Shown here piece by piece: positions 25,700 through 57,039 of a stretch of DNA of 64,000 nt. A program made the translations under genes and the position numbers. Position 1 is the stretch's first letter. Each line of letters opens with the position of its first letter. The stretch lies in contig JBGTMQ010000020.1 in assembly GCA_041743505.1 (NCBI GenBank), positions 17,099 to 81,098 of the forward strand. Reading direction: 5' to 3'. This DNA is from Candidatus Saccharimonadia bacterium (GTDB lineage: Bacteria; Patescibacteriota; Saccharimonadia; UBA4664). The notes under the pieces are model-generated. The model was not told where the DNA came from and searched no databases. It saw only the letters and a list, made by a program, of their open reading frames with translations.

Positions 25700-25823
25700 G
25701 GTACTAGAATTTTTCTAATAGTTGCCAAAACAACGCAAAATCAAGCATAATAATAGCTCCATAAAGCCATTATACAGCCATCATGTAAGTGTACCTTTCC
25801 TGACTAGAAAAATTCTAGTACCC
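25700..25823. repeat. ~123-bp repeat element with palindromic inverted termini, copy 1
   Basis: Left end GGTACTAGAATTTTTCTAATAG and right end ACTAGAAAAATTCTAGTACC. The same family occurs at 29797-29918 and 40341-40463. Confidence 0.6.
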
Positions 25824-40091: not shown

Positions 40092-40166
40092 TGGTGATCC
40101 CACGGGGAATCGAACCCCGGTTGCCGGGATGAAAACCCGGTGTCCTAACCGCTAGACGATGGGACC
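40092..40166 (-). tRNA. tRNA-Glu (anticodon UUC)
   Basis: The reverse complement GGTCCCATCGTCTAGCGGTTAGGACACCGGGTTTTCATCCCGGCAACCGGGGTTCGATTCCCCGTGGGATCACCA folds as a cloverleaf. It has a 7-bp acceptor stem, a D-arm, a 5-bp anticodon stem with loop TTTTCAT, a GGGGTTCGATTCCCC T-arm, and an encoded CCA. Confidence 0.85.
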
Positions 40167-40340: not shown

Positions 40341-40463
40341 GGTACTAGATTTCTTCTAGTCTCGCAGCCGCCGCAACGAAGCGGCTGTATTAATGGCTTC
40401 GCATAGGAAACATTACGCAATGATCTACGCTATATTGTCAACTACTAGAAAAATTCTAGTACC
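40341..40463. repeat. ~123-bp repeat element with palindromic inverted termini, copy 3
   Basis: Left end GGTACTAGATTTCTTCTAGTC and right end ACTACTAGAAAAATTCTAGTACC. Confidence 0.6.
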
Positions 40464-42112: not shown

Positions 42113-43144
42113 ATGGCGCAATCTCAGAAACTCATCAGCATTATTGTGCCTTGTCACAACGAGCAAGCCAATATCGAGCCGCTTTACCAGGCATTATCAC
42201 AAACCATCAATGACCTACCGGAATCTTTCGAGTTTATTTTTGTCGATGACGGCAGTAAGGACGACACCCTAATCGGCCTCCGCGAGCTGGCTGAGCGCGA
42301 CGAACGGGTCCGGGTTATCGAAATGGTGCGCAACTTCGGCAAGGAAATCGCCATTACCGCCGGCCTGCATCAATCCAGCGGCGATGCGGCTATTTGTCTG
42401 GACGCCGACCTCCAACACCCCCCGGAACTCATCCCGGACCTCATAGCCAAGTGGCACGGCGGCGCCGAAGTCGTCGTCGGTATCCGCTCACCCGGCTCCC
42501 GCCACGCCTCATTTATTAAGCTGGCCGGCAGCGCCGTCTTTTATAGGCTCATGAACGCCATCTCCGACGTCGAAATCGTCGCCCGCGCCACCGATTATCG
42601 CCTTATCGACCGGGTCGTCATCAACGAGTTCAACCGCTTCACCGAGCACAGCCGCATCACCCGCGGGCTCATCGACTGGTTGGGCTTCAAGCGCGCCTAC
42701 GTCGAATTCAAAACCCCCAGCCGCAACGCCGGTAACGCCGGTTACGGCATATTCAAGCTCGTCAATCTGGCCCTCAACTCCTTTGTTTCCATGAGCCTTG
42801 TCCCACTCCGCTTCGCCGGCTGGCTTGGCGCCGTCATCATGCTCACCTCGGGCGCTACCGGCCTATTCATTTTCATCGAGAAATACCTTCTCAAGGACCC
42901 CTGGGGCCTTGGCTTCTCCGGCCCGGCCATCCTGGCCGTCATCATCCTGTTCCTCGTCGGCCTCATGCTGGTCTGCCTTGGGCTCATCTCGCTCTATATT
43001 GGTGTCATCCACACCGAAGTCATGAACCGCCCGCTCTACGTCACCCGCAGCCGCAATCGCCGGGGCGGCCGCATCCTCGTTGATGCCCAGGAGGTGGTCG
43101 AGCATCAAAAACAAGAACAAGAGCACGAGGCGCTCCGCCGGTGA
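42113..43144 (+). CDS. family 2 glycosyltransferase (GtrB / polyprenol-phosphate glycosyltransferase-like, with C-terminal TM helices)
   Basis: ISIIVPCHNE...FVDDGSKDDT...DADLQHPPE matches GT2 DXD architecture. Two C-terminal TM helices are typical of GtrB/DPM1-like enzymes. Confidence 0.8.
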   Translation: MAQSQKLISIIVPCHNEQANIEPLYQALSQTINDLPESFEFIFVDDGSKDDTLIGLRELAERDERVRVIEMVRNFGKEIAITAGLHQSSGDAAICLDADLQHPPELIPDLIAKWHGGAEVVVGIRSPGSRHASFIKLAGSAVFYRLMNAISDVEIVARATDYRLIDRVVINEFNRFTEHSRITRGLIDWLGFKRAYVEFKTPSRNAGNAGYGIFKLVNLALNSFVSMSLVPLRFAGWLGAVIMLTSGATGLFIFIEKYLLKDPWGLGFSGPAILAVIILFLVGLMLVCLGLISLYIGVIHTEVMNRPLYVTRSRNRRGGRILVDAQEVVEHQKQEQEHEALRR

Positions 43145-44286
43145 ACATCCTCTGGCTAACCTGGAAGGACCGCCGGAATCCTCTTGCTGGCGGGGCCGAA
43201 GTGGTCAATGAAGAGCTGGCCAAGCGCCTGGCCTCAGGCGGCCACAAAGTCACCTTCCTGGTCGCAGGATTTCCCGGCAGCCAGCCCCAAGAAGACCGCG
43301 ACGGCTTCCATATCATTCGCATCTCCAGCCGCTATATGGTCTATTTAGCTGCCTTCAGCTACTTCCGTCGCCACCAAACCGAACTCAACCCTGACCTAGT
43401 CATCGACGAGTGCAACACCATGCCGTTCTTTTCGGCTTGGTACACGCACAAACCAACCATTATGTTCTTCCACCAACTTTGCCGCATTACCTGGTTTTAT
43501 CAATTTCCCCAACCCCTCTCCACCATCGGCTGGCTGGCCGAACCCGTTTACCTTCGCCTGCTCAAACGCAGCCCGGTTATCACCATCTCAAACTCCGCCA
43601 AACAAGACCTTATCCGCCACGGCTTCAAGGCCGCCGACATCCACATCATCTCCGAAGGCTCCCACCTCACACCCGTCAAAGACCCTGCCGGTGTCGTCAA
43701 ATTTGCCACCCCCACCATCATCAGCCTCGGCTCCATTCGTCCCGTCAAACGCACCCTCCACCAGCTCCAAGCCTTCGAACACGCCAAAGCTACCATGCCT
43801 GACCTCCGCTTCATCATTGGCGGCGACTCCTCGGGCAGCTACGGCAGCCAATTCCTCGAAGCCATCAAGCGTAGCCCCTACGCCGCCGATATTGACTACC
43901 GCGGCCATGTCAGCGACGCCGAAAAACTCGAACTCATGCAGCGTGCCCACGCCATCGTCGTCACCAGCGTCAAAGAAGGCTGGGGACTCATCGTCACCGA
44001 AGCCAACTCGCAGGGCACCCCGGCCGTCGTCTACGACGTCGACGGCCTCCGCGATAGCGTCCGCGACGGCCAAACCGGCCTAATAACGCCAGCCAATACA
44101 CCCGAAGCGCTAGGAGACAAAATCATTGAACTCCTCCGCGACCCCGCCCGCTACCAAACCCTCCGCACGCAAGCCTGGCAATGGAGCAAAACCATCACCT
44201 TCGATCAAAGCTACGCCGACTTCACCAAAGTCCTCAATCTGACTACTACCCCTAACGAATCCCGACAAGAAGTTCCTACTCCGTGA
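43141..44286 (+). CDS. family 4 glycosyltransferase (GT-B fold)
   Basis: GT4 EX7E region EGWGLIVTEANSQGTPAVVYDVDGL. GTGA overlap with the preceding GT2. Confidence 0.8.
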   Translation: MNILWLTWKDRRNPLAGGAEVVNEELAKRLASGGHKVTFLVAGFPGSQPQEDRDGFHIIRISSRYMVYLAAFSYFRRHQTELNPDLVIDECNTMPFFSAWYTHKPTIMFFHQLCRITWFYQFPQPLSTIGWLAEPVYLRLLKRSPVITISNSAKQDLIRHGFKAADIHIISEGSHLTPVKDPAGVVKFATPTIISLGSIRPVKRTLHQLQAFEHAKATMPDLRFIIGGDSSGSYGSQFLEAIKRSPYAADIDYRGHVSDAEKLELMQRAHAIVVTSVKEGWGLIVTEANSQGTPAVVYDVDGLRDSVRDGQTGLITPANTPEALGDKIIELLRDPARYQTLRTQAWQWSKTITFDQSYADFTKVLNLTTTPNESRQEVPTP

Positions 44287-44650
44287 CAGAACTGGAATGC
44301 TGGCTCCGCAAAGTACTCTTAAATGCTAAATAAGCACCCAGGCCGGACAAAACAACCACTAGAAAGTAAACCGGGGACAGTAGCTCCGGCTGGAATCCAG
44401 TTTCCGCTATGGCTAAGCCATTAACAATCACGCTTGGTGCTATTTGTATAACGAGAATACCACCCAGTATTCGCAAAGCAACTCTTGAAGGTCTCACCAA
44501 CACAGTCATAGCCAGAGCGATCGCTATTATGGCTATGACTACAGCAATAAGCCTGTAAAAATTTAGATCAAAGCCAGGTATGTACACGTGTAAGAAATAA
44601 ATTGACACCCCAATCGCCAAAAATGCCGCGGAACGAGATAAATTACTCAT
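44276..44650 (-). CDS. small membrane protein
   Basis: 124 aa with 4 TM helices; low-GC region. Confidence 0.4.
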   Translation of the reverse strand: MSNLSRSAAFLAIGVSIYFLHVYIPGFDLNFYRLIAVVIAIIAIALAMTVLVRPSRVALRILGGILVIQIAPSVIVNGLAIAETGFQPELLSPVYFLVVVLSGLGAYLAFKSTLRSQHSSSVTE

Positions 44651-44742
44651 CCTTAGTTTAAGAATTGCTTAAGCATAAACATAATTTAACATTTTACTGA
44701 AGCAAAGAATATCAGCAAACCGCTTCTACTAACGATATTTAC

Positions 44743-45045
44743 TTACTGACCGAATAATGCCCAAATCCAACCCATTTGAATACTAACAAACAACCCCCAG
44801 CCAATAAGGGCCAGATAAGTTCCAGCCTTGCGAATGAGCAATAGTCGCTTTCGAATCTTCTGATCTTTTTGACGGCGGATCGCCATCGTGATGCCGATGA
44901 ATGCCGCGACGAGGATGACGAGAAAAATAATTGTATAGTTCACATAGTCATAAAAGCGTTGGGCCCAAAGATCTTGCCAAACGGGACTACCGTACGTAAG
45001 GAAGCCTAAATGATATTGGATAATACTCATGTCTACAGTGTACAT
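44743..45045 (-). CDS. small membrane protein, paralog family A (copy 1)
   Basis: The C-terminal 75 aa are near-identical to 48544..48831. Related to 47008..47286. Confidence 0.5.
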   Translation of the reverse strand: MYTVDMSIIQYHLGFLTYGSPVWQDLWAQRFYDYVNYTIIFLVILVAAFIGITMAIRRQKDQKIRKRLLLIRKAGTYLALIGWGLFVSIQMGWIWALFGQ

Positions 45046-45101
45046 AATTTATCCCTACAAAAGCTAAGTCTAGGAGAGCAAGATGCACTCTCCGGGACTA
45101 T

Positions 45102-45461
45102 ATGTTGTTCTTAGCTTGCCCAGGGCAGCTTCCAAAATTTGGAAATACCCTACTAGAACGCTACACTAAGACAGAAATGACGCGCCTAAGTCTTAGTCTT
45201 GTACTACTCCTCAGCGGCCTCCTATTGGCGTTGGTAGCATATACTTGGGCAGCCCCTCAAGTCTGCGCACTCAAGGGTTTACCAATGAACTCATTTGGTT
45301 GCCTGTACATCGTTATCTATGCAACGGCGGGCGCACTACTCGTGCCGTTCTTAGCGGGTCTCGTACTGTACGTACGAGAACTCCGCCGAACTCTTAAGCC
45401 CAATTCAAACACCAAGCAGGGTAAAAGTATGATACCCAGCAAAAAAGATCTAATTATGTGA
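45102..45461 (+). CDS. small membrane protein
   Basis: 119 aa with 2-3 TM helices. Confidence 0.3.
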   Translation: MLFLACPGQLPKFGNTLLERYTKTEMTRLSLSLVLLLSGLLLALVAYTWAAPQVCALKGLPMNSFGCLYIVIYATAGALLVPFLAGLVLYVRELRRTLKPNSNTKQGKSMIPSKKDLIM

Positions 45462-45470
45462 TGATTTCAA

Positions 45471-45785
45471 CTAACGAAGGTTTTCCCAACCTGTTGGAAC
45501 GATTGAAAGAAACTTATAGACGGCCAACTGAGCGATTAAAAGGAACACGGCGAGAGAAGCAGAAGCAATAAGCCAGCCTTTACGCGGCTTATTTAGCCAA
45601 AACCAGCCGAGCCAAGCTAAGCCAGTACCAATAGCTGTTACAGCACCAAATTCAACAACAGAAACCCCCTGATAACGTGCATACTTCCAATACAGGACGG
45701 AAAAGATAATGTAATACACAGGAACAGCTAGTTGGCGAATCACATTGAGGCATTGCTTATTCATGGATATATAGGGAGAAGTCAT
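45471..45785 (-). CDS. small membrane protein, paralog family B (copy 1)
   Basis: Shared motifs with 45802..46095 (IIF..YWKYA.YQG....EFG.V.......LAWLGWF.LN.PRK). Confidence 0.5.
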   Translation of the reverse strand: MTSPYISMNKQCLNVIRQLAVPVYYIIFSVLYWKYARYQGVSVVEFGAVTAIGTGLAWLGWFWLNKPRKGWLIASASLAVFLLIAQLAVYKFLSIVPTGWENLR

Positions 45786-45801
45786 CTGCCCTTACTGTTC
45801 A

Positions 45802-46095
45802 TTATTTGATATTTTCCCAACCCGCGGGAAGAGAAGTCATAAATGTATACACATATATCAGAGCGAATAGTAAAACTATTACTAACGAGGCTGAGGAAAT
45901 AAGCACTGCTTTACGTGGTTGATTCAATAAGAACCAGCCGAGCCAAGCAAGCACGCCACCAGCGGTGATAACGCTACCAAATTCATAGGCAGTGAAGCCT
46001 TGGTAAAACGCGTATTTCCAAAAAATGATTATGAAAATAATGTAAGTCAAAGGGATACTTAGTTGACGAGCTATGGTAGAATATTGCTTACTCAT
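45802..46095 (-). CDS. small membrane protein, paralog family B (copy 2)
   Basis: Tandem paralog of 45471..45785. Confidence 0.5.
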   Translation of the reverse strand: MSKQYSTIARQLSIPLTYIIFIIIFWKYAFYQGFTAYEFGSVITAGGVLAWLGWFLLNQPRKAVLISSASLVIVLLFALIYVYTFMTSLPAGWENIK

Positions 46096-46357
46096 AGCAA
46101 TATTCTACCATAAGCGAATAAGCAGATCGATCGCTGAATTTAATAAGCGGGTGGACACCGAAAGGCGCCCACCCGCAACCTTATCCCAGCCTTACGAGCT
46201 TCTGCTACAGTATTCTTGATGACATCATTGAGCTTGAATCCAAAACTTCAGTACGAGCACAAAAAAAGTCCACATCCCGAGTCATATCGTGATGTGGACT
46301 AAAATCTAGTTGCGAGTACAGATTGAACCGCGGCTAGTATTCGGCTAACATTATGAC

Positions 46358-46600
46358 ATGAAAGGCACGAACAAAGGTTCAAAACCCGTGAAAAACAGGT
46401 CAATAGCGGGGCTAATACTCATATGCCTGAGTCCTCTCGCTGCGTTGCCGGCGGTCACATTTCTAGGTTCGAGCGTATGCCAGCCCCAAGGCGGCTTTTT
46501 AGACTTCAGTTGCCTCCAGCCTAACGCCTACCTTGGAGCCGCTGCTTTAGCATCGGCGCTACTTATTGGTTGCCTGCTGTATTTTTGGCCTTCGCGCTAA
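46358..46600 (+). CDS. small membrane protein
   Basis: 80 aa with 2 TM helices. Confidence 0.3.
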   Translation: MKGTNKGSKPVKNRSIAGLILICLSPLAALPAVTFLGSSVCQPQGGFLDFSCLQPNAYLGAAALASALLIGCLLYFWPSR

Positions 46601-46737
46601 GGACATAGCATTGCGTTATCCTTACTGCTCCTGCAAGTTAATTATATAACGCCTCTATACGCAGTACTTTGGACACTAACTTGGCTGCTTGCTGGGCTCA
46701 TCGTATGCATTCGAGATTCGGCCTGGGCTTCAATGCT

Positions 46738-46995
46738 CTACAATAACCCCACATAGTTTCCGGATGGTATAAAAACGAAGAAATACCACGCTAGCCCACC
46801 AAGGGAAGCTATTGCTGCACAATAAGCTAGAGTTTTGAGAGTCTTCTTTATTTGCGAGCGCCGCTGGCTTTTCCGCCCAGCCAAATACCAATAACTACCA
46901 AGTAACGCAAGCACGATAATCAGTGGCAAAACGATAACTAAGAATATGTGTGCATAAAAAGCTGAAGCTGGAATAAAGCCGTCTGGGTAGTACAT
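46738..46995 (-). CDS. small membrane protein
   Basis: 85 aa with 2 TM helices. Confidence 0.35.
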   Translation of the reverse strand: MYYPDGFIPASAFYAHIFLVIVLPLIIVLALLGSYWYLAGRKSQRRSQIKKTLKTLAYCAAIASLGGLAWYFFVFIPSGNYVGLL

Positions 46996-47007
46996 AGTCG
47001 TGTATTA

Positions 47008-47286
47008 CTAGCCGAGCGGTATCAGAGACATTCCTACGCCGACAAAAAATAGCCACCCTATTAATGAGAGATAAGTACCAATTTTGCGAGCTAACAATAG
47101 TTGCTTTCGAACCTTCTGATTCTTTTGATGACGGATGGCAATTGTTACCACTGTAAAGGCGGCAATAAGAACGACAAAGAAAATAATCGTATAAAGCTCA
47201 TATTCGTAAAGTCGCTGATTCCAAGTATTTTGCCAGTCAGGATCATTCGGGGAAAATGCACCGAAAAGAAATTGGATATTATTCAT
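47008..47286 (-). CDS. small membrane protein, paralog family A (copy 2, diverged)
   Basis: Shares the FSP.DP.W...W.QR.Y.Y..YTIIF...L.AAF...T.AIR.QK.QK.RK.LLL.RK.GTYL.LIGW motif set with family A. Confidence 0.5.
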   Translation of the reverse strand: MNNIQFLFGAFSPNDPDWQNTWNQRLYEYELYTIIFFVVLIAAFTVVTIAIRHQKNQKVRKQLLLARKIGTYLSLIGWLFFVGVGMSLIPLG

Positions 47287-47323
47287 ATATTACAGTCTAC
47301 ACAATTTAGCAACACAAAAGCAT

Positions 47324-47356
47324 AGTCCCGGGGAGCATACTATGCTCCCCGGGACT
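47324..47356. terminator. 33-nt perfect hairpin (family of 3: also ~45068-45099 degenerate, 48868-48900)
   Basis: AGTCCCGGGGAGCATA-g-TATGCTCCCCGGGACT sits between the 3' end of the hydrolase-domain gene and the 5' end of a family-A gene. Confidence 0.5.
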
Positions 47357-47363
47357 ATTGTAA

Positions 47364-47978
47364 TCAGTGTATACCGGCACGCAGTGCTGCAACAGCAGCA
47401 TTAGCGATCTTGGTCTGACCAGCATCATTGGGATGTGGGTAGCCGAAGTAGCGAGTTTGCTGCAACCGCGACAAAGGGCTATTACCAAATGCCGTCCGGA
47501 GGTCAATCACCATGACACCGGGACCTGCCAAGTCTTGGTGTAGTAGATTCAATCCATCAACTACACTTTGAGCACCATGCCATGTGCCTGTCTTGGTCGG
47601 GTCGGACGGGGTAACTGGAATTTGTCGATTCTGGCTGCATACATTATTCGCCGCCAGTGTGTAGGGGTATAGCATGTCGACAAATCTAGTGCTGGCTGAA
47701 GCCGCTCGACCGTCAGCCATTATGCGGATGAGATCGGCACGAATTGGGCCTCGTTGATCCTGAAGCCGATTGTAAAGCGTCTGCGTGTCTGGGCAGTCAG
47801 ACCAATTCTTTACGTTCCATGGCTTAAGGCTACCCGTACGATTTGCATCGTAAAAATCTTTCAGCGTGGCATCGAACCTGATATTGTTCGCACCTCCAGT
47901 TAGGCTAACGATATTCCAGCTCCCCGAGTTTGAGCGGAGACTGCGAACCATTGCATCAATCTGACCTTGCTCGAACAT
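47364..47978 (-). pseudogene. truncated paralog of the SGNH-hydrolase C-terminal domain of 48912..51479 (lacks catalytic GDS block)
   Basis: The 204-aa product aligns almost residue-for-residue with the last roughly 205 aa of the 855-aa protein. It starts just after the position of block I (GDSFSSG), so the nucleophile is absent. Confidence 0.6.
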
Positions 47979-48020
47979 TTGCCGGGTGCTGGCTCCGCTC
48001 TGTGCAACGAGCAGAGTACG

Positions 48021-48224
48021 ATAACGCCAGCCAATACACCCGAAGCGCTAGGTGACAAAATCATTGAACTCCTCCGCGACCCCGCCCGCTACCAAACCCT
48101 CCGCACGCAAGCCTGGCAATGGAGCAAAACCATCACCTTCGATCAAAGCTACGCCGACTTCACCAAAGTCCTCAATCTAACTACCACCCCCAACCAATCC
48201 CGCCAAGAAGTTCCTACTCCGTGA
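48021..48224 (+). repeat. duplicated copy (~97% identical) of the 3' end of the GT4 gene (44083-44286), fused to hydrolase-derived sequence
   Basis: About 195 bp of 44092-44286 recurs with roughly 6 mismatches. The junction uses the 9-bp microhomology ATAACGCCA, present in both parents at 44083-44091 and 49569-49577. It creates the chimeric ORF 47967..48224. Confidence 0.8.
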
Positions 48225-48321
48225 CGGGTCTTTATGCCGAACTTATAGATTTACGCACAAAAACCTGAGCGACAACAATAAGAAAATACCCGAGTGGAGT
48301 GCTATAGACTGCTAAAAACGA

Positions 48322-48519
48322 TTAAGAATTCAGCCAAATATATTGGTAATAATAAAACGCAGCTATCAAAAGCAGAAATGATAGCATTAATAAAGCGAAC
48401 GGCCTCCACCGTAGAGTCTTTGTCTTTTGGAATTGCGTCAGACCCAAACCAAGAGAAACAGCACCACCCAAAAGAATAATACCGAGCAGAACAAGCTCTA
48501 AATATGTAGACGATTTCAT
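48322..48519 (-). CDS. small membrane protein
   Basis: 65 aa with 2 TM helices. Confidence 0.3.
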   Translation of the reverse strand: MKSSTYLELVLLGIILLGGAVSLGLGLTQFQKTKTLRWRPFALLMLSFLLLIAAFYYYQYIWLNS

Positions 48520-48543
48520 ATAAGCATTATAGAAGACATTTAC

Positions 48544-48831
48544 TTACTGACCGAATAATGCCCAAATCCAACCCATTTGAATACTAACAAACAGCCCCCA
48601 GCCAATAAGGGCGAGATAAGTTCCAGCCTTGCGAATGAGCAATAATCGCTTTCGAATCTTCTGATCCTTTTGACGGCGGATCGCCATCGTGATGCCGATG
48701 AATGCCGCGACTAGGATGATAAGGAAGATAATGGTGTAGTTTACGTAATCATAAAAGCGGTTGGTCCAAAAAGCGACCCATTCAGGGTCTGTCGGAGAAA
48801 AATCACCAAGATAAAAATGTATATGATTCAT
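48544..48831 (-). CDS. small membrane protein, paralog family A (copy 3)
   Basis: About 95% nt identity to 44743..45045 over the 3' roughly 230 bp. The 5' ends differ. Confidence 0.55.
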   Translation of the reverse strand: MNHIHFYLGDFSPTDPEWVAFWTNRFYDYVNYTIIFLIILVAAFIGITMAIRRQKDQKIRKRLLLIRKAGTYLALIGWGLFVSIQMGWIWALFGQ

Positions 48832-48911
48832 AGCAATAGTCTACGATAATTTTGCATAGAAAAGCAAAGTCCCGGAGAGTAAGGTGCGCTCTCCGGGACT
48901 ATATGTTGTTC

Positions 48912-51479
48912 TTAGCGTGCATCAGCTCTCAGGGCCGTAACCGCAATGCTAGCCATCTTGGTCTGTCCAGCATCGTTGGGGTGCGGATAACCAAAGTAGC
49001 GGGTTTGCTGCAATCGCTGCAATGGTCTGTTGCCAAACGCCACTCGTAGGTCAACCTTAATCACGTCAGGGCCTGCGAGGATCTGATGTAGGCGGTCAAG
49101 TTCATCAATGACGCTTTGGGCGCCATGCCAGGTACCCATTTGAGATGGGTTAGAAGGATTGGTAGGCACCTGGCGGTCCTGGCTGCACACATTGCTCGTC
49201 GGTAGTACGTATGGATAGAGCATGTCAACAAACCTGGTGCTGGACGAAGCCTCTCGGACAGTAGCAACAATCTGAGCCAGGTCGGCAGTGATTGTGCCTC
49301 TCTGAGCTAGCAAGCGGTTATATAATGCTTGCGTATCGGGGCAGTCAGACCAGTTGGTGACCGCCCACGGCTTAGGATCGCCCGAAGGATGCTCCTCATA
49401 GAATTCACGCAGCGTGTTGAGAAAGTCGATGTTGTTTGCACCTCCAGTAAGGCTGACGATATTCCAGCTCCCTGCGTTTGCACGAATGGTGCGAACCATC
49501 ACATCAATCTGACCTTGCTCGAACATTTGCCGGGTGCTGGCTCCGCTCTGTGCAACGAGCAGAGTACGATAACGCCACTCGTTAGGCACGCCAACGTTGA
49601 GTTTGCTGGCAGCGCGAGTTACCCAGGAGAAGTTTGGATCGTTCGCTGCGTATGACTTTGGGCTACACGACCCAACTAACGGCCACTCGATGGGTGCACA
49701 ACTGCGATTATCCACATCCTGATGGTGACCGCTACTGAAAGAGTCACCAACGCCAATCCATCTCGGTGCCGGAGGCACCTTCAGCTTCGTTGGCGCACCC
49801 CCATAAACAGGCGCATCAGACTTGGCAATCCGGGCAGTAATCGAGACGTTACCACTCGGCGGGAGCCGGTGGATCGAATCAAAGACCTTCCACTGGAAAC
49901 GGTACTGGCTGGGAGCCGTACCGCCCGCGGCACAAATCTGAGGCCGCTTCTCCCAATTACCGGCCGCTATAATCAGCGTAGCCGGACATGAGACGCCTGA
50001 CAGGTCAACCGTTACATCTAGGTGATACAGTGGCGTAGTATTGCCCACTGTCCAATTCACGCCAGTAACCTTGCCGTGCTGCTTGCCATCGGCAGGCGGC
50101 GGCGGAGGCGGTGGGTTGTCCACGGGGCTCTTCCACAGCACCGTTTGCGGGTATGCCCCGGTCAAACCGGGCACATTAAACGCATCAACGCTGTAGCTGG
50201 CCTCGCTTGACTCAGTGCCGCCATTCTTGTGCAGGAGCGACAAAACCGCCTTTCCAGGGACTAACGCCATCGACGGCTTCCATCCGTAATTGAACCAGCT
50301 CTGCTGGTTAGCCGAGCTGTCGCCCTTAAGGATGATGGGACTTTGTGCTGCGCCACCAGCGCTAAAGTGTGAAACTTGCACACCGGCACAGGCATCCGAC
50401 CACAAATTACAGTCGAAACTGAAATTGATTGCCAACAGCACCTGCCCGGTCCCGTCCACATGAGGAGCTTGAACCCCGCGCAGGTAAGTACCGGCTGGAG
50501 ACGTAATCGTCTGGTGCCAGCCAGCTTGCCCTGAACCGTCAACATACTGCACATCAGCACCGCTAGATACGTGGCTGACAACCACAGCACCCCCATTGGG
50601 GGTAGCTGCCACGTACGGCCCGCCATGATTACAGCGGGTAATGTGGGGCAATGTCTTGGTCCAGGCCACACCCGCCGGACCAAACTTAGTCAGCTTGGCG
50701 TCGCCATTGGCATCCAAGCAACCCTCTGGTGTGAGAGTCTGCGTGTACCACACGACGAACAACTCGCCTGTGGCCGAAGCCGAAACATCCCGGCCAACTG
50801 CGTCGGCCGGAGCTGGTGAAGCTGTGAACGGTCCGCCTGCAGTGCGGCCGTCGTATCCGAGGTACCACACACGGCCCGAACCACTATAAGCCACCAGGCC
50901 ACGGTCATAAGCCAGCAGCTTGTCGCTACTGCCGTAAGCAAAACCGCTCAAGGCCACACCAGCAAACAGTTCGTGACCGTCACTAGCATCGTAACCATGC
51001 AGCGTGCTGCCGGTCATGCCATAAACCTGGCCGTTAGCACCAACTGCGAGCAGATCCAACCCCGTTACGGACTTACTCCACTTCTCAGTCGAGCCGCTCG
51101 CTGCAATCAGCCGGGCTTGGCCGCTGCCGGGGTTCTGGACCCGGTAGGTGTTACCCGAAGCGTCCACTACTGGTCCCGGACCAATGTAGTCCTGGTCCTG
51201 GTAGCCCACGTTCCAGCTAGCCGTCCCAGTCGCATTAATGCCCACCAGGGCGTCGCCGCCACTCGGAACACCACCATTTGAGATGGCCGTATTGGCAATA
51301 ACACCACCGTTCGGCTGCGGCGACAAAGCCGCAAAATGCCGCACCGGCACACTCCACGCAGCCCCATTCCCAAACGGGCTGGGTGCAGCTGCTGCCACAC
51401 CTGGCACTAACATCGAGAACACCAGAGTACACAAAAGCACCACGGTCAAAGACCCGGTGCTGCGGCGTGACCTAGTCAC
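48912..51479 (-). CDS. secreted multidomain protein: signal peptide + PQQ/beta-propeller-like repeat region + poly-Pro linker + C-terminal SGNH/GDSL hydrolase domain
   Basis: Signal peptide with an AAAAP cleavage-like site. Repeated G..Y/W blocks suggest a beta-propeller. PPPPPPPPA linker. SGNH block I IGVGDSFSSG and block III SLTGGANNID. Confidence 0.6.
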   Translation of the reverse strand: MTRSRRSTGSLTVVLLCTLVFSMLVPGVAAAAPSPFGNGAAWSVPVRHFAALSPQPNGGVIANTAISNGGVPSGGDALVGINATGTASWNVGYQDQDYIGPGPVVDASGNTYRVQNPGSGQARLIAASGSTEKWSKSVTGLDLLAVGANGQVYGMTGSTLHGYDASDGHELFAGVALSGFAYGSSDKLLAYDRGLVAYSGSGRVWYLGYDGRTAGGPFTASPAPADAVGRDVSASATGELFVVWYTQTLTPEGCLDANGDAKLTKFGPAGVAWTKTLPHITRCNHGGPYVAATPNGGAVVVSHVSSGADVQYVDGSGQAGWHQTITSPAGTYLRGVQAPHVDGTGQVLLAINFSFDCNLWSDACAGVQVSHFSAGGAAQSPIILKGDSSANQQSWFNYGWKPSMALVPGKAVLSLLHKNGGTESSEASYSVDAFNVPGLTGAYPQTVLWKSPVDNPPPPPPPADGKQHGKVTGVNWTVGNTTPLYHLDVTVDLSGVSCPATLIIAAGNWEKRPQICAAGGTAPSQYRFQWKVFDSIHRLPPSGNVSITARIAKSDAPVYGGAPTKLKVPPAPRWIGVGDSFSSGHHQDVDNRSCAPIEWPLVGSCSPKSYAANDPNFSWVTRAASKLNVGVPNEWRYRTLLVAQSGASTRQMFEQGQIDVMVRTIRANAGSWNIVSLTGGANNIDFLNTLREFYEEHPSGDPKPWAVTNWSDCPDTQALYNRLLAQRGTITADLAQIVATVREASSSTRFVDMLYPYVLPTSNVCSQDRQVPTNPSNPSQMGTWHGAQSVIDELDRLHQILAGPDVIKVDLRVAFGNRPLQRLQQTRYFGYPHPNDAGQTKMASIAVTALRADAR

Positions 51480-51737
51480 GACCCCCTCCTTAACATGAGT
51501 AGGCTAAAACTGTGAATGAACTTAGAACCTTGACATTATACACTGGATAGTAAAATAAGTCAACAAAAGCTACTCGGCGCAACCAATCCTACCTGCATAA
51601 GTCGGCCCAATGTCCATAATATTTGTCATATTTCACAAAACACCGCTTGCCATTAGCTTGTAAACTAGTGTAGATAATTCACAAGTACGTTGGAGTAATC
51701 CAACCACATCAAGCCGTTTTAAGCAGGTACCCAGCTC

Positions 51738-52571
51738 ATGAACCAACCGCTCATATCCGTTATCGTCCCCACTCGCAACAGCGAGCCGGTCCTGCGTCCT
51801 TGCCTCCAATCCATCAAAGACCAAACCTACCCCAACATTGAGCTCATCGTCGTTGACCGCGATTCCACCGACGCCACCAAGCAAATCGCCGCCGAATTTA
51901 CGACTCATATATATAACCACGGCCCCGAACGCTCAGCTCAACGCAACCTCGGCGCCCAAAAGGCCACCGGCCAGTACCTCGCCATTATCGATTCCGATAT
52001 GGAATTAGACCCCGAAGTCATCGAACAATGCTTCGCCCAATTCGTCGCCGACCCCACCTTGGCCGGCGTTGTCATCCCCGAAGAATCCTTCGGCCAAGGC
52101 TTCTGGGCCCAATGCAAACGCCTCGAGCGCTCATTCTACGTCGGCGTCACCTGGATCGAGGCGGCCCGCTGTTTCCCGACCAAAACCTACCACCAACTTG
52201 GCGGTTACGACGTCACCATGGTTAGTGGCGAAGACTGGGATCTCGCCCGCCGCGCCGAACAACTCGGTCCCATCGGCCACACCCAGGCCCTCATCCGCCA
52301 CAACGAAGGCCGCATCAACCTCTGGAAAACTCTCAAAAAGAAGTACTACTACGCCCAACAAGCCAAAGCCTATCTCGAAAAAAGCCAAACCGGCTCCAAA
52401 CTCACCGCCCAAGTCGGCCCGCTCCAGCGCTACAAACTGTTTTTCTCAAAACCCGGCCACCTCTTCCGCAATCCAATCCTTGGCATCGGCATGCTCTTTA
52501 TGAAAACCTGCGAATACGCCGCCGGAGCATTCGGCTACTATGGCAGCAGTCTTCGTCGTAAGCCTGTGTAA
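51738..52571 (+). CDS. family 2 glycosyltransferase
   Basis: ISVIVPTRNSE...VVDRDSTD...IDSDMEL (DXD) matches the GT2 fold. High-GC. Confidence 0.75.
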   Translation: MNQPLISVIVPTRNSEPVLRPCLQSIKDQTYPNIELIVVDRDSTDATKQIAAEFTTHIYNHGPERSAQRNLGAQKATGQYLAIIDSDMELDPEVIEQCFAQFVADPTLAGVVIPEESFGQGFWAQCKRLERSFYVGVTWIEAARCFPTKTYHQLGGYDVTMVSGEDWDLARRAEQLGPIGHTQALIRHNEGRINLWKTLKKKYYYAQQAKAYLEKSQTGSKLTAQVGPLQRYKLFFSKPGHLFRNPILGIGMLFMKTCEYAAGAFGYYGSSLRRKPV

Positions 52572-52691: not shown

Positions 52692-53639
52692 ATGACCAAG
52701 CTCGATCAATCAAATCAGTCGCCTGTGAGTATAGTTATCCCGACCTTTAACCGGCCGGATAAGCTGGAAAACCTTCTGCGCAGTATTGCTGGCTCTACAG
52801 TAAAAGATTGTGAAGTTATTATTGTTGATGATTGTTCAGCTGTTCCCACCGAAGACTCGCTTCAAAGTTATTTGCCCAGCCTTAACCTGCGGGTCAAAGT
52901 CATTCGGAACAAAACAAACCAGCAGCTCACCAAAAGCCGTAATATCGGGATGAAGGCAGCTAGCGGTAAGTACATTTTCCTTGTCGATGATGATAATATC
53001 CTCGATCCCAAGTGCATTGAGGTTTTGCGGGACAAATTAGCCAGCGATGAGCATATTGGAGTTGTTGGGCCCGTCACCTACTTCGCCAATAACCCTAAAA
53101 CAATCTGGTGGGCTGGCACTAGTCGAAATATGACAACCAGCCGCACCCATTTCATTGGAACCAGCCTACCTCTGCCCGATGAACCGTCCTGGCCGTCCGA
53201 TGACTTTCCCAATGCCTGGATGATTACCCGGGAGATTGTTGATCGCGGGTGTTTTTTGGATGAAAGGTATAAAATTCACTATGACGAAGCCGATTATTGC
53301 GCAAGAATAAAGAAGCTTGGCTACAAGCTCTTTGTCGTACGTGACGCCCGGTCAAATCACGATTTTGAACCTGATTCCCCGAGCGCTTTAGCTGAGCGAT
53401 GGCTAGACCACCGCCGTGTCTATTACTCGGCGCGTAATCGCGTAGTTTTTCATAAGGAGTACTCCACCTCAAGGGAATTTTTGCAGTTTGCGCTATTCTG
53501 GAATTGGCTATTCACAGCCTATTATATGCAATATATCTTGCGCATACCCACCAAAAACTGGAGCACTAAATTAAAGAGCTGTTTCTCTTATCTCAAGGGT
53601 TCTATCGATGGGTTTTATGGCTTTAGAGAAGGTATCTAA
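52692..53639 (+). CDS. family 2 glycosyltransferase (low-GC)
   Basis: VSIVIPTFNRPD...IIVDDCS...LVDDDN matches the GT2 fold. Confidence 0.75.
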   Translation: MTKLDQSNQSPVSIVIPTFNRPDKLENLLRSIAGSTVKDCEVIIVDDCSAVPTEDSLQSYLPSLNLRVKVIRNKTNQQLTKSRNIGMKAASGKYIFLVDDDNILDPKCIEVLRDKLASDEHIGVVGPVTYFANNPKTIWWAGTSRNMTTSRTHFIGTSLPLPDEPSWPSDDFPNAWMITREIVDRGCFLDERYKIHYDEADYCARIKKLGYKLFVVRDARSNHDFEPDSPSALAERWLDHRRVYYSARNRVVFHKEYSTSREFLQFALFWNWLFTAYYMQYILRIPTKNWSTKLKSCFSYLKGSIDGFYGFREGI

Positions 53640-56600
53640 AAAAACCAAGACCGTCTTCTGGGCAGCGCTTGGCGGGGTAGGCATCATTGTGCTTGCCCTC
53701 TTGTCAATTAAAGGCAAGATGTTCATTATCCCGGACAATATGCCCATTACCTTAGAAAATTATCAGCACATTTTCTTGAGTAATAGCGCCTGGAGTCATT
53801 TCCTCAACATACCCACCTACGATCAGTCAATCTTTATATTTCGCCAGTACATCTTCTGGCTCTCCAAACTCTTCTCATTGGAATTAGGGCAAGGGCTCCT
53901 GTTAGGGAAAATTCTGTTCGTGCTTAGTGCCGGTTGGGGCATGTATCTGCTCGGTAAAGATATTAACCGCCGGTTCTTCGATGGCCGAATCGAAACGCTA
54001 TTCTTAATCATAGGCGCTATCTTGTACGCCTTGGCTCCGGCGTTTTTAATAGCCGATAGTTTCTGGGTTGGCATTCAGTTTGGCTACTATATTATTCCCC
54101 TCATACTTTTTAGCGTTACCAAAATAGTGCTAGACGGGAACTGGGTATACTTACCGCTGTACCTGTGGCTCCTGTCTCTCAATAACGCCATTCACTATAC
54201 CTATGGTGGTTACCCGGCATTAATCGGTATTTTTTGTCTGGCGCTTATCATTGGTGAAGGCCGGAGCGAAAAAATCAAACTAGTTCGCCTCGCCATGCGA
54301 CTGACCGTCATCGCGATCGGTTATCTCCTCATAATTTCACCCAACCTGGTCGGCTTGCTGTCTCCTGATGTCGGCATGGCCACCCAGATGACCAAGCAGT
54401 CGATTGACGCGCCGTGGTCGTCGGCTTCATTTGTGAACGTGGCCGTTGGCATGAGTTCTAACAACTTAATACTTGATTATTATTCACGCGATTCGCTCAC
54501 AAAAATCGCCTACGGATTCCTGGCCTTCGTTCCGATGATCGCTCTAATCTCGCTCCTATTTCTCCCAAAATACCGCGAAGCAGCCCAGAAATATTACCGG
54601 TTTCTACTCGCCATCATTATTGGCTATATGCTTGTAATTCTGTGTTTCTCAGATGGGAGCATTTTTAAGTTCATTCATTACTCACTAGCTTTCGATGCTC
54701 CAATGGGCCGCATCCTCAGAACCACGCGGGTGACCGAAAGCTTCGTCCTTATAGCCCTAGCTCTAATCATCCCATTTTCGCTGCACGAGATAAAACGCTA
54801 TTCAAAGATCCCCACCCGTATCATGGCCGTAATAGGCACCCTCGTATTATTGGCCTATATAACCCCCGTTTTAAAAGGGGATATAAACGGGCCAATAATT
54901 TCCGTGCCTAAGCAATATCTAGAGCAGTCCAATTTTCTCAAAACTGTCGCCGACCCTTCGGTCGACAAAACCGTGGCTGCGCCGGAGTTCACCGCCTCAT
55001 ATGGGAAAGATGCGGTTATGAAGCCGCATTGGAGCCCAAACGTGGGTATGATCGCCGAGTTCCTTGGTTACTCACAACCAATACAGGCCATCCTCACGCT
55101 TGATAACTTAAGACATTATTATTACTTCACCGTATCTGACTTTTATAAAAAATCGAATAACCTGATTTTTTCCGAGGAATTCTATGCCCTTGCTCATTTT
55201 TTAAGCCTGAATAACGTCCGGTATCTGATGTTTCACGCCGATACCCAATCAAATCTGAAAGATATCGAATTCGCCGACAAGATTCTCGATTCAAAGTACT
55301 GGCAAAGTGTCTATACCAATAAAGATATAACTGTGTTTGAAAACCAAGTCAGGCAACCGGCGGTTAGCGCTTATTCCCAAGATGAAACCTCGCTTGTGTC
55401 CGGCGGCTATCGGAGTGCTGCCAGGTTTATAAACCAATTGCCCGAAACACTGAACCAAAACCGGCTATTCGCCTTCTTAGACCAAGGCGCTAACCCTGCC
55501 CTAATAGGCACGACCGGGCGACTAATTACCGATAAAACACCCGGGGACCTCAACGGCGACATTATGGCAGCCAGCGTCATTGCCGAGAAATCACTACCAG
55601 GGGCCCAAATAATCTTTCCGGCCGAGAAAACCAAGCAGTACGCCCCAGAATCAGTCTGGTCCACCGGGACATACGCCAATAACCACGAGCAAGAGTGGCA
55701 CAGATATGTAAACGAAATGGACGATTACGCCTGGGATTTTGATTGGGGCCACGGCATTCTATTTATTAACCGGGCCAAAAATAAGTTAGAAATTCCCATT
55801 GAAAACGCCAGTCAGGGGCAATCCAAAATCCATGTCCGGTACCTCAAAAACGACAAGGGCGGAGACATGTATCTCAATATTAGCGGTCAGAGGTTCCATA
55901 TTAACTCAATATCCCCCTATGACGGCTTCGGCTGGGCCAGCTTTGACGTTGGCCAAACTAAAAATAACAACCACATCATCTTAGAAAATAGCAGCGGGTT
56001 TAACGCTGTTTCAACCATCCTCATCATCGACGATAAGGCAACCAATACTATTGCCTCTACTACCAAGCCTTTAATTACGAATGCCAAGATCATCGATAAC
56101 TCACTGGAAACCAGCCCCAATATCTCCCGCGCCTCAGGTTTTGAGAGTCCATCAGACATGGCCCAGTGGCGTGTGTCGAAGAAGGAGGGCTCCTTTACAT
56201 CCAAACTAGATACCAGCCAGCCCAAAGAGGGCAAGTCGTCTCTCGTAGTCCAAACTAGCGGCCAGTCGCGGGCCTGGAGCTGGATAGAGGGCCCATCCAT
56301 AAATGTTGAACCAGGCGAGAAGTATGTCTTCAGAACCAATATCAAGCTTTCCAATGCCATGAACTCACACATCGCGCTAATCGGTAAAGGGAAAAACGGT
56401 GAGAAACAGCTAACTCAACTGCCCGGAGCTATCAGCGGCACCAGTGAATGGCAGAGTTTCCGCCACACCATCAAAATCCCGTCCGGCGTTACTTCTGTTA
56501 GAGTCGCCCTCAATGCTGGCTGGGCAAAAGACAAGTCTCGACCTGCAAAAACCTGGTTTGATGCCATCAAATTAAACCCACTAACGCCCGCCTTACCTTT

Positions 56601-57039
56601 AGGTGAAGTAGAATCGATGTCCAAAAGCGTTACGAATTTAAAACAGCTAAATAACACTCGCTGGGAGGGCGACATCAGTCTACCCAACAACAAGCCTGTA
56701 TTCCTGGCCTTTAACCAAAGCTTCGATCCGGGATGGAAGCTTTTTCTAGCACCCGGCAATCAGTCTCAAAACAACGCAAGTTCTATTGGCTTCACAAAAC
56801 CCGGCCTGGAAATTGATACCAAGAAACATTTTAAGGCCAACGGTATTAATAATGGCTGGGAGATTGACCCAAGCTCGTTACCGCCTAATTTACAGAGCAC
56901 ACCCATGCATTTTGTAATCGAATATTGGCCTCAGCGCTCATACCTACTGGCTCAAATAGTCGAAGGATCAGCTCTCCTCCTCTCAGTCGCCGGTGCTATT
57001 GCCTTTGTCATATTCAGGAGGCGGAACAAACATGCATAG
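53608..57039 (+). CDS. giant polytopic membrane protein with large extracytoplasmic C-terminal domain and C-terminal TM anchor (GT-C / AftD-like architecture; paralog 1)
   Basis: About 12-13 N-terminal TM helices, then roughly 700 aa soluble, then a final TM (ALLLSVAGAIAFVIF) and a basic tail. It shares the C-terminal module (F.PGW.L ... NGW.ID ... PQR) with 59426..63205. Confidence 0.55.
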   Translation: MGFMALEKVSKKTKTVFWAALGGVGIIVLALLSIKGKMFIIPDNMPITLENYQHIFLSNSAWSHFLNIPTYDQSIFIFRQYIFWLSKLFSLELGQGLLLGKILFVLSAGWGMYLLGKDINRRFFDGRIETLFLIIGAILYALAPAFLIADSFWVGIQFGYYIIPLILFSVTKIVLDGNWVYLPLYLWLLSLNNAIHYTYGGYPALIGIFCLALIIGEGRSEKIKLVRLAMRLTVIAIGYLLIISPNLVGLLSPDVGMATQMTKQSIDAPWSSASFVNVAVGMSSNNLILDYYSRDSLTKIAYGFLAFVPMIALISLLFLPKYREAAQKYYRFLLAIIIGYMLVILCFSDGSIFKFIHYSLAFDAPMGRILRTTRVTESFVLIALALIIPFSLHEIKRYSKIPTRIMAVIGTLVLLAYITPVLKGDINGPIISVPKQYLEQSNFLKTVADPSVDKTVAAPEFTASYGKDAVMKPHWSPNVGMIAEFLGYSQPIQAILTLDNLRHYYYFTVSDFYKKSNNLIFSEEFYALAHFLSLNNVRYLMFHADTQSNLKDIEFADKILDSKYWQSVYTNKDITVFENQVRQPAVSAYSQDETSLVSGGYRSAARFINQLPETLNQNRLFAFLDQGANPALIGTTGRLITDKTPGDLNGDIMAASVIAEKSLPGAQIIFPAEKTKQYAPESVWSTGTYANNHEQEWHRYVNEMDDYAWDFDWGHGILFINRAKNKLEIPIENASQGQSKIHVRYLKNDKGGDMYLNISGQRFHINSISPYDGFGWASFDVGQTKNNNHIILENSSGFNAVSTILIIDDKATNTIASTTKPLITNAKIIDNSLETSPNISRASGFESPSDMAQWRVSKKEGSFTSKLDTSQPKEGKSSLVVQTSGQSRAWSWIEGPSINVEPGEKYVFRTNIKLSNAMNSHIALIGKGKNGEKQLTQLPGAISGTSEWQSFRHTIKIPSGVTSVRVALNAGWAKDKSRPAKTWFDAIKLNPLTPALPLGEVESMSKSVTNLKQLNNTRWEGDISLPNNKPVFLAFNQSFDPGWKLFLAPGNQSQNNASSIGFTKPGLEIDTKKHFKANGINNGWEIDPSSLPPNLQSTPMHFVIEYWPQRSYLLAQIVEGSALLLSVAGAIAFVIFRRRNKHA

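Follow-up and report, generated by a model that had tools for sequence, protein, structure and literature searches.

In this study, we analyzed a 64,000-nt stretch of DNA from a Candidatus Saccharimonadia bacterium (contig JBGTMQ010000020.1 of assembly GCA_041743505.1, positions 17,099 to 81,098; hereafter the window), in which a glycosyltransferase operon is interrupted, between its GT4 and GT2b genes, by an island carrying a GDSL-type hydrolase and many small membrane-protein genes. Inside this island, the 3' end of GT4 recurs next to the C-terminal remnant of a second hydrolase allele. We consider it probable that a single illegitimate crossover fused two diverged alleles of one variable island that is found between GT4 and GT2b only in this lineage. 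Judged by the divergence of its parts, the event would be better called a fusion of two diverged island versions than a duplication of one. The features that matter most for this reading are listed here with their window coordinates.

43141 to 44286, + strand: GT4 glycosyltransferase gene, intact; assigned by Pfam and by orthologues in the same gene order.
44083 to 44287, + strand: tail A, the last 67 codons of GT4 with the stop and 1 nt more, with the joint 9-mer at 44083-44091; one parent of the repeat.
47364 to 48029, - strand: HYD1 fragment, the remainder of a diverged hydrolase allele (its final 221 codons); SGNH blocks II, III, and V kept, no GDS block, no signal peptide.
47954 to 48029, no strand: 76-nt identical patch, equal to 49502-49577; the sole exact match of the fragment to the intact hydrolase.
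47967 to 48224, + strand: chimeric 85-amino acid (aa) open reading frame (ORF) with a TTG start, whose first 18 codons run antisense to the hydrolase fragment and whose other 67 come from the GT4 tail.
48021 to 48029, no strand: the joint ATAACGCCA, present in both parents.
48021 to 48225, + strand: tail B, a relic that repeats the GT4 3' end but has no GT4 body upstream; six differences from tail A.
48912 to 51479, - strand: HYD2, the intact 855-aa hydrolase, with Lipase_GDSL_2 at 40.6 bits against a cutoff of 32.9; 9-mer at 49569-49577.
51535 to 51563, - strand: sigma-70-like promoter upstream of the hydrolase, TTGACT-17-TATAAT, 11 of 12 positions.
51738 to 52571, + strand: GT2b, which follows GT4 directly in relatives; right edge of the 7.45-kb insertion.

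A preliminary description of this DNA had claimed that the GT4 3' end recurs with about 97% identity and had proposed self-alignment as a check. A repeat search and a self-BLAST of the 40-54 kb region confirmed the repeats to the base, and all of the coordinates held: positions 44083-44287 match 48021-48225 at 199 of 205 nt, with six mismatches and no gaps (97.07%; blastn E 2.6e-95). On the other side of the joint, 47880-48029 is 91% identical to 49428-49577 in the intact hydrolase gene. The wider homology between 47068-48029 and 48613-49577 is only 70.7% identical, and a third partial module at 44734-45119 is 84% identical to 48535-48920. Only the 76 nt that adjoin the joint are exactly identical, and since this patch is the fragment's only exact match to the intact hydrolase, position 47954 marks where both hydrolase alleles begin to diverge.

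The joint itself reads ...GAGCAGAGTACG, then ATAACGCCA, then GCCAATACACC... When the three sequences were compared side by side, the left flank of the joint corresponded to the hydrolase parent (49546-49577, + strand of the hydrolase gene) and the right flank to the GT4 parent (44083-44110), while the 9-mer ATAACGCCA was the sole sequence common to both parents at the joint; its presence at 44083-44091 and 49569-49577 had been described before. Apart from 44083, 48021, and 49569, this 9-mer is found only once more, as an unrelated copy at 54182, and a random blunt joint would show 9 bp or more of microhomology with a probability of about 3e-5. By its anatomy, the sequence at 48021-48029 reads as a genuine illegitimate-recombination junction of the microhomology-mediated kind. 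The two ORFs that had been reported around it, the chimeric 85-aa ORF (47967-48224) and a 204-aa ORF (47364-47978), both exist. The chimeric ORF has neither a Shine-Dalgarno sequence nor a -10-like box upstream of its TTG, is not on record as a called gene in an exact protein look-up, and is probably a by-product of the event.

Given its occurrence in both parents and once more at 54182, the 9-mer could be taken for the core site of a mobile element or a site-specific recombinase. We find such an origin extremely improbable and rejected it: no integrase, transposase, or recombinase was found among the larger neighboring ORFs scanned against Pfam, no Rfam family matched, and no tRNA lies at the borders. 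Moreover, the 9-mer comes without inverted repeats, and the flanking repeats consist of 205 nt and 76 nt of ordinary coding sequence and not of target-site duplications.

The HYD1 fragment begins at W635 of the 855-aa hydrolase, 55 residues after S580 (near 49740), in agreement with the earlier statement that it lacks the GDS block. Devoid of the catalytic Ser block I, it scores 29.4 bits with Pfam, under the Lipase_GDSL_2 cutoff of 32.9. Compared to the intact gene, the fragment shows 73% aa identity over its 221 codons, with a non-synonymous divergence (dN) of 0.20, a synonymous divergence (dS) of at least 1.4, and a frame that is open throughout; over about 196 codons, dN/dS is about 0.14 and the proportion of synonymous differences (pS) about 0.8. 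Counted from the joint, the first 25 codons are nucleotide-identical, the next 25 have a pS of 0.5, and the other 170 have a pS of 0.67-0.80 and a dN of 0.2-0.3. The preliminary description had seen a simple duplication of the neighboring hydrolase here, which is at odds with saturated synonymous sites, a dN/dS of this size, and identity over only 76 nt. Since a fragment without the nucleophile Ser or an export signal could not be so constrained, HYD1 would have diverged as part of a separate working gene. On this evidence, we read the fragment as the remnant of a separately evolved, once-functional allele and not as a recent copy of its neighbor, and its truncation as recent, with the gene in working order during nearly all of the divergence. 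The 204-aa ORF starts at an internal ATG at 47978, with an in-frame stop just upstream of the joint, and this ATG lacks both a Shine-Dalgarno sequence and a -10-like box. The HYD1 fragment and the chimeric ORF are probably silent relics, and the 204-aa and 85-aa ORFs call for annotation as such and not as genes.

The GT4 tails lead in the same direction. Tail B holds only the last 67 codons and is not a gene. The six differences between tails A and B comprise five synonymous third positions and one non-synonymous change (E/Q), and they are placed unevenly, with 1 in the first 158 nt and 5 in the 47 nt at the end. At least five of six synonymous changes would be expected with P = 0.0037 if both lineages were neutral and with P = 0.034 if one were constrained. 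Since five of the six differences are synonymous, both tails appear to have diverged inside working genes, which points to two functional parental alleles and not to a copy decaying in place. In both copies, the tail homology stops one base past the GT4 stop codon; such a boundary would be natural if the two parents each had an island at this position.

A purely intragenomic history would have the hydrolase 3' end and the GT4 tail duplicated and diverging in place or, in another form, a rearrangement between old tandem full-length paralogues. Every piece does have a homologue within 5 kb, and gene conversion between nearby repeats could give identical patches. We nevertheless consider this history improbable, since a fragment lacking the GDS block and the signal cannot keep a dN/dS of 0.14 to saturation while the adjacent tail stays at 97% identity, and the synonymous bias of the tails argues against decay in place. 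The paralogue form would also need a second novel joint that falls, by coincidence, one base past the GT4 stop. As for an internal source of the second tail, no second GT4 locus is on record; the GT4 protein is the sole member of its 90% cluster and its next homologue is 67% identical; a protein search with GT4 likewise returned nothing above 67% except the query itself.

Part of the island has been assembled independently. The protein of m92, one of its small genes, was found in two independent Logan assemblies, L021 (SRR28170470) and L022 (SRR28170471), which cover window positions 44881-47983 and 46733-47983, respectively, and are both 100% identical to it (3103 nt for L021). The small-ORF array at 45102-46995 is 100% identical in L021 and L022. 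All three contig ends that fall at exact repeats stop 30 nt inside the repeat, both contigs at 47983 in the 76-nt patch and L021 at 44881 in a 44-nt repeat. Since contigs stop in this manner where a k=31 graph meets a branch, both repeat contexts exist in the reads.

These assemblies bear on the concern that the joint is an artefact, arising from a chimeric read or from the mis-assembly of two co-existing strains with one island version each. The source is a metagenome-assembled genome (MAG), the two Logan assemblies come from related runs and break at the repeats, where a strain mixture would also branch the graph, and no independent contig crosses the joint. We still regard an artefact as very unlikely. 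Assemblers do not join on a 9-nt overlap, so the k-mers of the joint must be in the reads, and a graph built from two strains would form a bubble between GT4 and the hydrolase with no path from the hydrolase back to a GT4 tail. In addition, the interior was reproduced without a mismatch in the independent assemblies, and a 9-bp microhomology in direct orientation is typical of joints formed in vivo.

The place of the island in the operon was examined in relatives. GT4 is intact, encodes 381 aa, and is the third gene of the flippase-GT2-GT4-GT2b operon, with both of its family domains above cutoff (Glycos_transf_1, 1.2e-28; Glyco_transf_4, 1.3e-18). Scanning one genome per species with GT4 yielded 17 related loci, mostly Saccharibacteria/Saccharimonadia MAGs, at up to 66% identity; the GT4 orthologues in L001-L016 are 49-67% identical and lie in the same gene order. 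In 10 loci (L002, L004-L010, L013, and L016), GT4 and GT2b are spaced within about 105 nt (-19 to 104 nt by tblastn matches), and the flippase-GT2-GT4-GT2b order is kept in most of them. The gap in the window measures 7452 nt, and the hydrolase and small genes that fill it were found in none of the 17 related loci. Since the operon is uninterrupted and the island missing in related loci, the whole of 44287-51737, which lies on the opposite strand, can be read as a lineage-specific insertion between GT4 and GT2b. The claim that a block of hydrolase and small membrane genes was spliced into the glycosyltransferase operon is thus upheld by the 10 uninterrupted relatives and by the absence of the island from the 17 loci. 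The comparison gave no close relative, and the unduplicated form of this island was not seen.

The same junction carries unrelated inserts of 0.9-3.8 kb in three relatives (L001:4747-5580, L012:11092-12147, and L014:2820-6576), and the one in L001 contains an ORF of about 230-290 aa without similarity to the window island. Since these relatives hold other inserts there, the GT4-GT2b junction may be a recurrent insertion point in the operon.

Together, the precise joint, the near-identity at the flanks only, the long-diverged interiors that were under selection, and the coincidence of the tail boundary with the island boundary favor two parental alleles. Both would have lain directly after GT4 and ended in a hydrolase with an identical or near-identical upstream part. 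Version 1 would have comprised m124, m100, a terminator, five more small genes, m92, a terminator, and the hydrolase allele HYD1, and version 2 would have comprised m65, m95, a terminator, and the hydrolase allele HYD2. DNA from a closely related strain with the other version would have paired by homology at one end, in the conserved hydrolase part or in GT4 (either fits as the anchor). The other end would have been joined through the 9-bp microhomology, linking the 9-mer in the version-1 hydrolase to the 9-mer in the GT4 tail that precedes version 2. The product would be a hetero-allelic tandem duplication instead of a clean allele replacement, with GT4 intact on the left, the hydrolase intact on the right, and a 205-nt GT4 relic and a displaced 221-codon C-terminal fragment between them; the displaced HYD1 fragment would keep its own terminator and small membrane genes. 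Three sequence contexts can be told apart by this scheme. Upstream of T at 48053, a base specific to tail B, GTACGATAACGCCA is the context of the joint and GGCCTAATAACGCCA would be that of a strain with version 2 only; HYD1-specific bases left of 47954 running into CTCGTTAGG would be the context of a strain with full-length HYD1.

Tandem duplications with short-junction join points are known in bacteria, for example from the work of Roth and colleagues. A recent example is given in PMC11111574. The window resembles these in that direct units meet, end to start, at a novel joint through a few identical bases, with 48029 and 48030 joining the equivalents of hydrolase position 49577 and GT4 position 44083. 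On the other hand, the units are not copies with a uniformly low divergence, as they measure 3938 bp and 1548 bp and differ by anything from 0% to saturation, with most of the length saturated. The divergence is a mosaic, with 0 of 76 nt differing on the hydrolase side, 1 of 158 on the tail side, and 5 of 47 at the tail end, a dS of 0.34 between m100 and m95, and saturated synonymous sites in the rest of the hydrolase fragment, m92, and the terminator region. We read the 3938-bp and 1548-bp units as a mosaic of at least three ages, the coding parts of which all evolved under purifying selection.

Such a mosaic could also have arisen in two steps: slippage or unequal exchange at the 9-mer would first have duplicated the 1548-bp unit (GT4 tail up to codon 635 of the hydrolase) in tandem within the genome, and homologous recombination with a diverged island allele would later have replaced the interior of the left copy. 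The joint has the anatomy of a classic tandem-duplication join point, and near-identity at both ends of the left unit only (158 nt of tail and 76 nt of hydrolase) is what interior replacement would leave. We regard this history as rather unlikely, since it takes two rare events against one and its crossovers must land within 158 nt and 76 nt of homology. It would still need an external diverged allele and differs from a single crossover between two island versions only in the order of events.

Several points weigh against the single crossover. A two-step history yields the same final sequence and is indistinguishable from it. The joint is not independently confirmed, as the Logan contigs end 30 nt inside the repeats, and an exact 30-mer across it had no match in metagenome contigs. 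The statistic on the tails rests on six substitutions only. No close relative turned up in the searched collections (GT4 at 67%, hydrolases at 53-84%), and neither parental allele nor the unduplicated state was seen: the genome-contig scan with GT4 gave nothing above 66% identity, an N-terminal alignment found no match in metagenome contigs or viral contigs, and exact look-ups of the proteins of GT4, the hydrolase, its N-terminal relative P0003, the chimeric ORF, and m65 found none on record. In addition, the MAG may be incomplete, so an internal second locus is conceivable. Within this analysis, the genome was assigned to Saccharibacteria by the best hits of only three operon genes.

The intact hydrolase belongs to a family in which domains appear to move. 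HYD2 consists of a signal-peptide-like N-terminus, a beta-propeller (about residues 50-450), a Pro-rich linker, a middle domain, and a GDSL/SGNH esterase domain (about 566-855), and it is preceded by the Shine-Dalgarno sequence AAGGAGG. SGNH blocks I, II, III, and V are all present (GDS at 578-580, G646, GGANN near 680, and H833). The AlphaFold2 model of the propeller (predicted local distance difference test, pLDDT, 73) matched BamB-like, lectin-like, and other propellers in Foldseek. The model of the GDSL domain, of moderate confidence (pLDDT 68), had as its best matches the Streptomyces rimosus lipase 5MAL, the S. albidoflavus phospholipase A1 4HYQ, and the S. scabies esterase 1ESC, which are all secreted, and the modeled fold of the C-terminal domain matches SGNH lipases. 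Identity to these Streptomyces enzymes is only 14-18%, and unlike them the domain in the window is fused to a beta-propeller and a middle domain. A PDB sequence search with either hydrolase domain gave no match, so only the fold comparison was informative. We found no literature on GDSL lipases of Saccharibacteria, nor any on the SRA run numbers.

The closest hydrolases are 53-84% identical to HYD2. P0003 is 83-84% identical over the N-terminal 450 aa (residues 1-451) and 24% over the GDSL domain, and P0004-P0008 carry other GDSL variants on the same propeller. In a full HMMER search, the propeller module and the module of middle domain plus GDSL were found apart and in other combinations among 151 cluster representatives (P0133-P0276); some representatives are 1000-1400 aa long, and the C-terminal module also occurs behind other N-termini. 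Since the two modules occur separately and in other combinations, the sequences indicate domain shuffling in this family, with C-termini swapped between genomes.

Many representatives of 150-250 aa match only residues of about 640-850, and a wide recurrence of 5'-truncated GDSL fragments was considered and rejected for the two inspected. P0162 lies on a 604-nt contig, and P0198 (215 aa) has an under-called start, as at L024:9545-10648 its frame continues open upstream, where the GDS block (VWVALGDSYSSGHH) and the middle domain are encoded. Short database proteins with blocks II-V only may often be annotation artefacts.

The rest of the island consists of small genes and terminator hairpins, as follows.

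44276 to 44650, - strand: m124, with several hydrophobic transmembrane (TM)-like segments; no counterpart beside tail B.
44743 to 45045, - strand: m100, small membrane protein of the m9x family; paralogue of m95.
45067 to 45101, - strand: orphaned, decaying terminator hairpin of module alpha; -16.3 kcal/mol, z -1.4.
45102 to 45461, + strand: p119, small TM-like ORF.
45471 to 45785, - strand: m104, small TM-like ORF; paralogue of m97.
45802 to 46095, - strand: m97, small TM-like ORF; paralogue of m104.
46358 to 46600, + strand: p80, small TM-like ORF.
46738 to 46995, - strand: m85, small TM-like ORF.
47008 to 47286, - strand: m92, of the m9x family, which goes with the truncated allele; 57% aa identity to m95, dS saturated, dN 0.32.
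47322 to 47358, - strand: strong terminator hairpin of the truncated allele, module beta; -34.1 kcal/mol, z -7.6, followed by GCUUUUGUGU.
48322 to 48519, - strand: m65, small membrane gene with weak relatives downstream of the L018 hydrolase homologue.
48544 to 48831, - strand: m95, of the m9x family, in the intact module; a homologous ORF follows the L019 hydrolase.
48868 to 48902, - strand: terminator hairpin of the intact hydrolase, module gamma; -26.2 kcal/mol, z -7.3, followed by a U-rich run.

Read along the minus strand, HYD2 (51479-48912) is followed by a hairpin (48902-48868), m95, m65, the antisense GT4 relic, and the HYD1 fragment (48029-47364); then come a hairpin (47358-47322), m92, m85, p80 on the opposite strand, m97, m104, and p119 on the opposite strand; and last the decayed hairpin (45101-45067), m100, m124, and the real GT4 3' end. 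In L019 and L018, the hydrolase homologue is likewise followed by an equivalent hairpin and a U-rich stretch, and for this reason we interpret the three hairpins as probable hydrolase terminators; a compensatory change is visible in the beta hairpin relative to the gamma hairpin. In the alpha module, homology to the intact module ends about 5 nt past the hydrolase stop (exact to 45115; the 28 nt at 45088-45115 equal 48889-48916), and a tblastn search rightward of this leftmost hairpin found no trace of a hydrolase. The terminator (45067-45101) probably lost its hydrolase in an earlier event of this kind.

All of the small ORFs have hydrophobic TM-like segments, and two sets are paralogous, m100, m95, and m92 on the one hand and m104 and m97 on the other. 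The intervening segment had been characterized as low in G+C and filled with small paralogous membrane genes, which fits a G+C content of 41-44% and TM-like ORFs of which some are paralogous. In the last 70 codons, m100 and m95 differ by 13 synonymous changes and 1 non-synonymous change (dS 0.34), and in the first 25 codons, the predicted non-membrane N-terminus, they are unrecognizably different (dN 0.65); the pair has the look of a hypervariable head on a conserved membrane body. Between m92 and m95 and between m104 and m97, synonymous sites are saturated and dN is about 0.3.

The starts of five small genes on the minus strand lie at 45030 (m100), 46095 (m97), 47286 (m92), 48519 (m65), and 48831 (m95). 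Since -10-like boxes (TAGACT, TAGAAT, or TATAAT, two of them with a TG extension) lie 6-9 nt before the ATG of the small genes and there is no Shine-Dalgarno sequence, these genes may have leaderless mRNAs that start right after the hydrolase terminators. Their stretches (44287-47363 and 48226-48911) form a G+C trough of 41-44% against 55-58% around them, and the small-gene array at L018:8857-10400 shows the same trough, with 41.6% compared to 58-60% on the hydrolase side. Seen in two unrelated loci, this trough could reflect amino-acid composition or foreign origin. In L019, which holds the closest full-length relative, the hydrolase is followed by a terminator and an m9x homologue, and in L018 an array of small two-TM ORFs follows the hydrolase homologue, two of them weakly m65-like (38-40% over 43-55 aa, E 2e-8 to 3e-7). 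Small genes after the hydrolase homologue were found in neither L020 nor L024.

Saccharibacteria are naturally competent and take up and recombine DNA via ComEC (PMC10633639). By analogy, the event in the window resembles homology-facilitated illegitimate recombination (HFIR) and would be equivalent to the C-terminal displacement of Rhs and type VI secretion system (T6SS) loci. HFIR in transformable bacteria has been reported by de Vries and Wackernagel (2002), Prudhomme et al. (2002), and Meier and Wackernagel (2003), as they are referred to in PMC5361080, and in PMC3240628. In the laboratory cases, as here, one-sided homology and a short microhomology joint integrate extra DNA beside the anchor, and the host phylum in question is competent; the donors are defined there and inferred here, and the joint in the window falls inside a homologous region, giving a duplication and not a deletion.

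Kirchberger et al. (2017, PMC5361080) put forward HFIR as the way in which T6SS effectors are displaced, with former 3' ends and immunity genes staying behind. The mechanism proposed for these effector-immunity arrays of Vibrio cholerae is the one proposed for the window: homology anchors one end, the other end is joined illegitimately, an old effector 3' end is pushed downstream with its small genes, and small-gene arrays build up. Unlike those arrays, the window preserves the illegitimate joint to the base with its microhomology and holds an enzyme with a signal-peptide-like N-terminus in a probable Saccharibacteria genome, outside a T6SS cluster. At Rhs loci, partial-core fragments are nearly identical to the upstream gene and lie in a low-G+C trough (Jackson et al. 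2009, PMC2935791). Both there and here, a full-length gene is followed by a 5'-truncated fragment without a good start site, which has an identical or near-identical upstream end and a diverged remainder (here 76 identical nt, then 27% aa divergence). In both, small genes follow each tip (m95 and m65 after HYD2, m92 and m85 after HYD1, and m100 and m124 after the orphan terminator), the trough lies downstream, and the core is decoupled from the tip across genomes, as in P0003 with its 83% core and 24% GDSL domain. In contrast to Rhs arrays, the identical core spans only 76 nt, what was displaced is a GDSL domain homologous to the intact one (73% aa identity) and not an unrelated toxin, and a piece of the neighboring GT4 was carried along. 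The island also has none of the hallmarks of Rhs, contact-dependent inhibition (CDI), or T6SS loci (YD/Rhs repeats, VENN or PxxxxDPxGL motifs, and a T6SS, CdiB, or PAAR context), as Pfam finds only GDSL and the neighbors are glycosyltransferases. We conclude that the hydrolase island is not a member of the Rhs/CDI/T6SS family and only seems to work alike.

The wider neighborhood of the operon was also inspected. The sole tRNA gene in the window, tRNA-Glu(UUC) at 40092-40166 (- strand), is located some 420 nt upstream of the first gene of the operon, which encodes the flippase, and a 29-nt inverted match (93%) between 40435-40463, just upstream of the flippase gene, and 25700-25728, 15 kb away, may be due to chance. 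Further upstream is a neighborhood of secreted enzymes, with a 938-aa protein at 31665-34481 (- strand) that combines a gingipain-type Peptidase_C25 domain (1e-53) with the corresponding propeptide domain; an alpha/beta-hydrolase and a barrel protein of dirigent/AOC-like type come after it. Downstream of the glycosyltransferases are two very large ORFs on the + strand, one of 1143 aa (53608-57039) with long hydrophobic stretches at its start and a CBM_4_9 domain, and one of 1259 aa (59426-63205) without a Pfam match.

The process described here is already known; the host and the protein family are unusual, and the case is well preserved. In a bacterium of the candidate phyla radiation, the joint records recombination between diverged alleles with unusual clarity: the junction with its microhomology, the sequences of both parents, and the boundaries of the alleles can all still be read within 300 nt. 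Natural competence of Saccharibacteria has so far been shown only in the laboratory, and a natural HFIR-like event would show that DNA uptake reshapes their surface and secretome loci in nature as well. The locus further draws attention to a family of hydrolases in which propeller and GDSL modules have been shuffled from genome to genome. Because these modules shuffle and arrays of small membrane genes under strong purifying selection travel along with them, the family is a candidate for functions in host interaction or competition in episymbionts. By a further analogy, which we put forward tentatively and hold to be doubtful, the island could be a polymorphic effector system, in which a secreted beta-propeller carries GDSL C-termini of a lipase- or phospholipase-like kind that can be exchanged, each C-terminus is paired with leaderless, fast-evolving small membrane proteins that protect the producer, and C-terminal displacement after natural transformation brings about diversity. 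If so, such a system would be previously undescribed in Saccharibacteria, and the orphaned HYD1 fragment would serve as a silent cassette, with the 76 nt of homology as the handle by which it could be exchanged back in.

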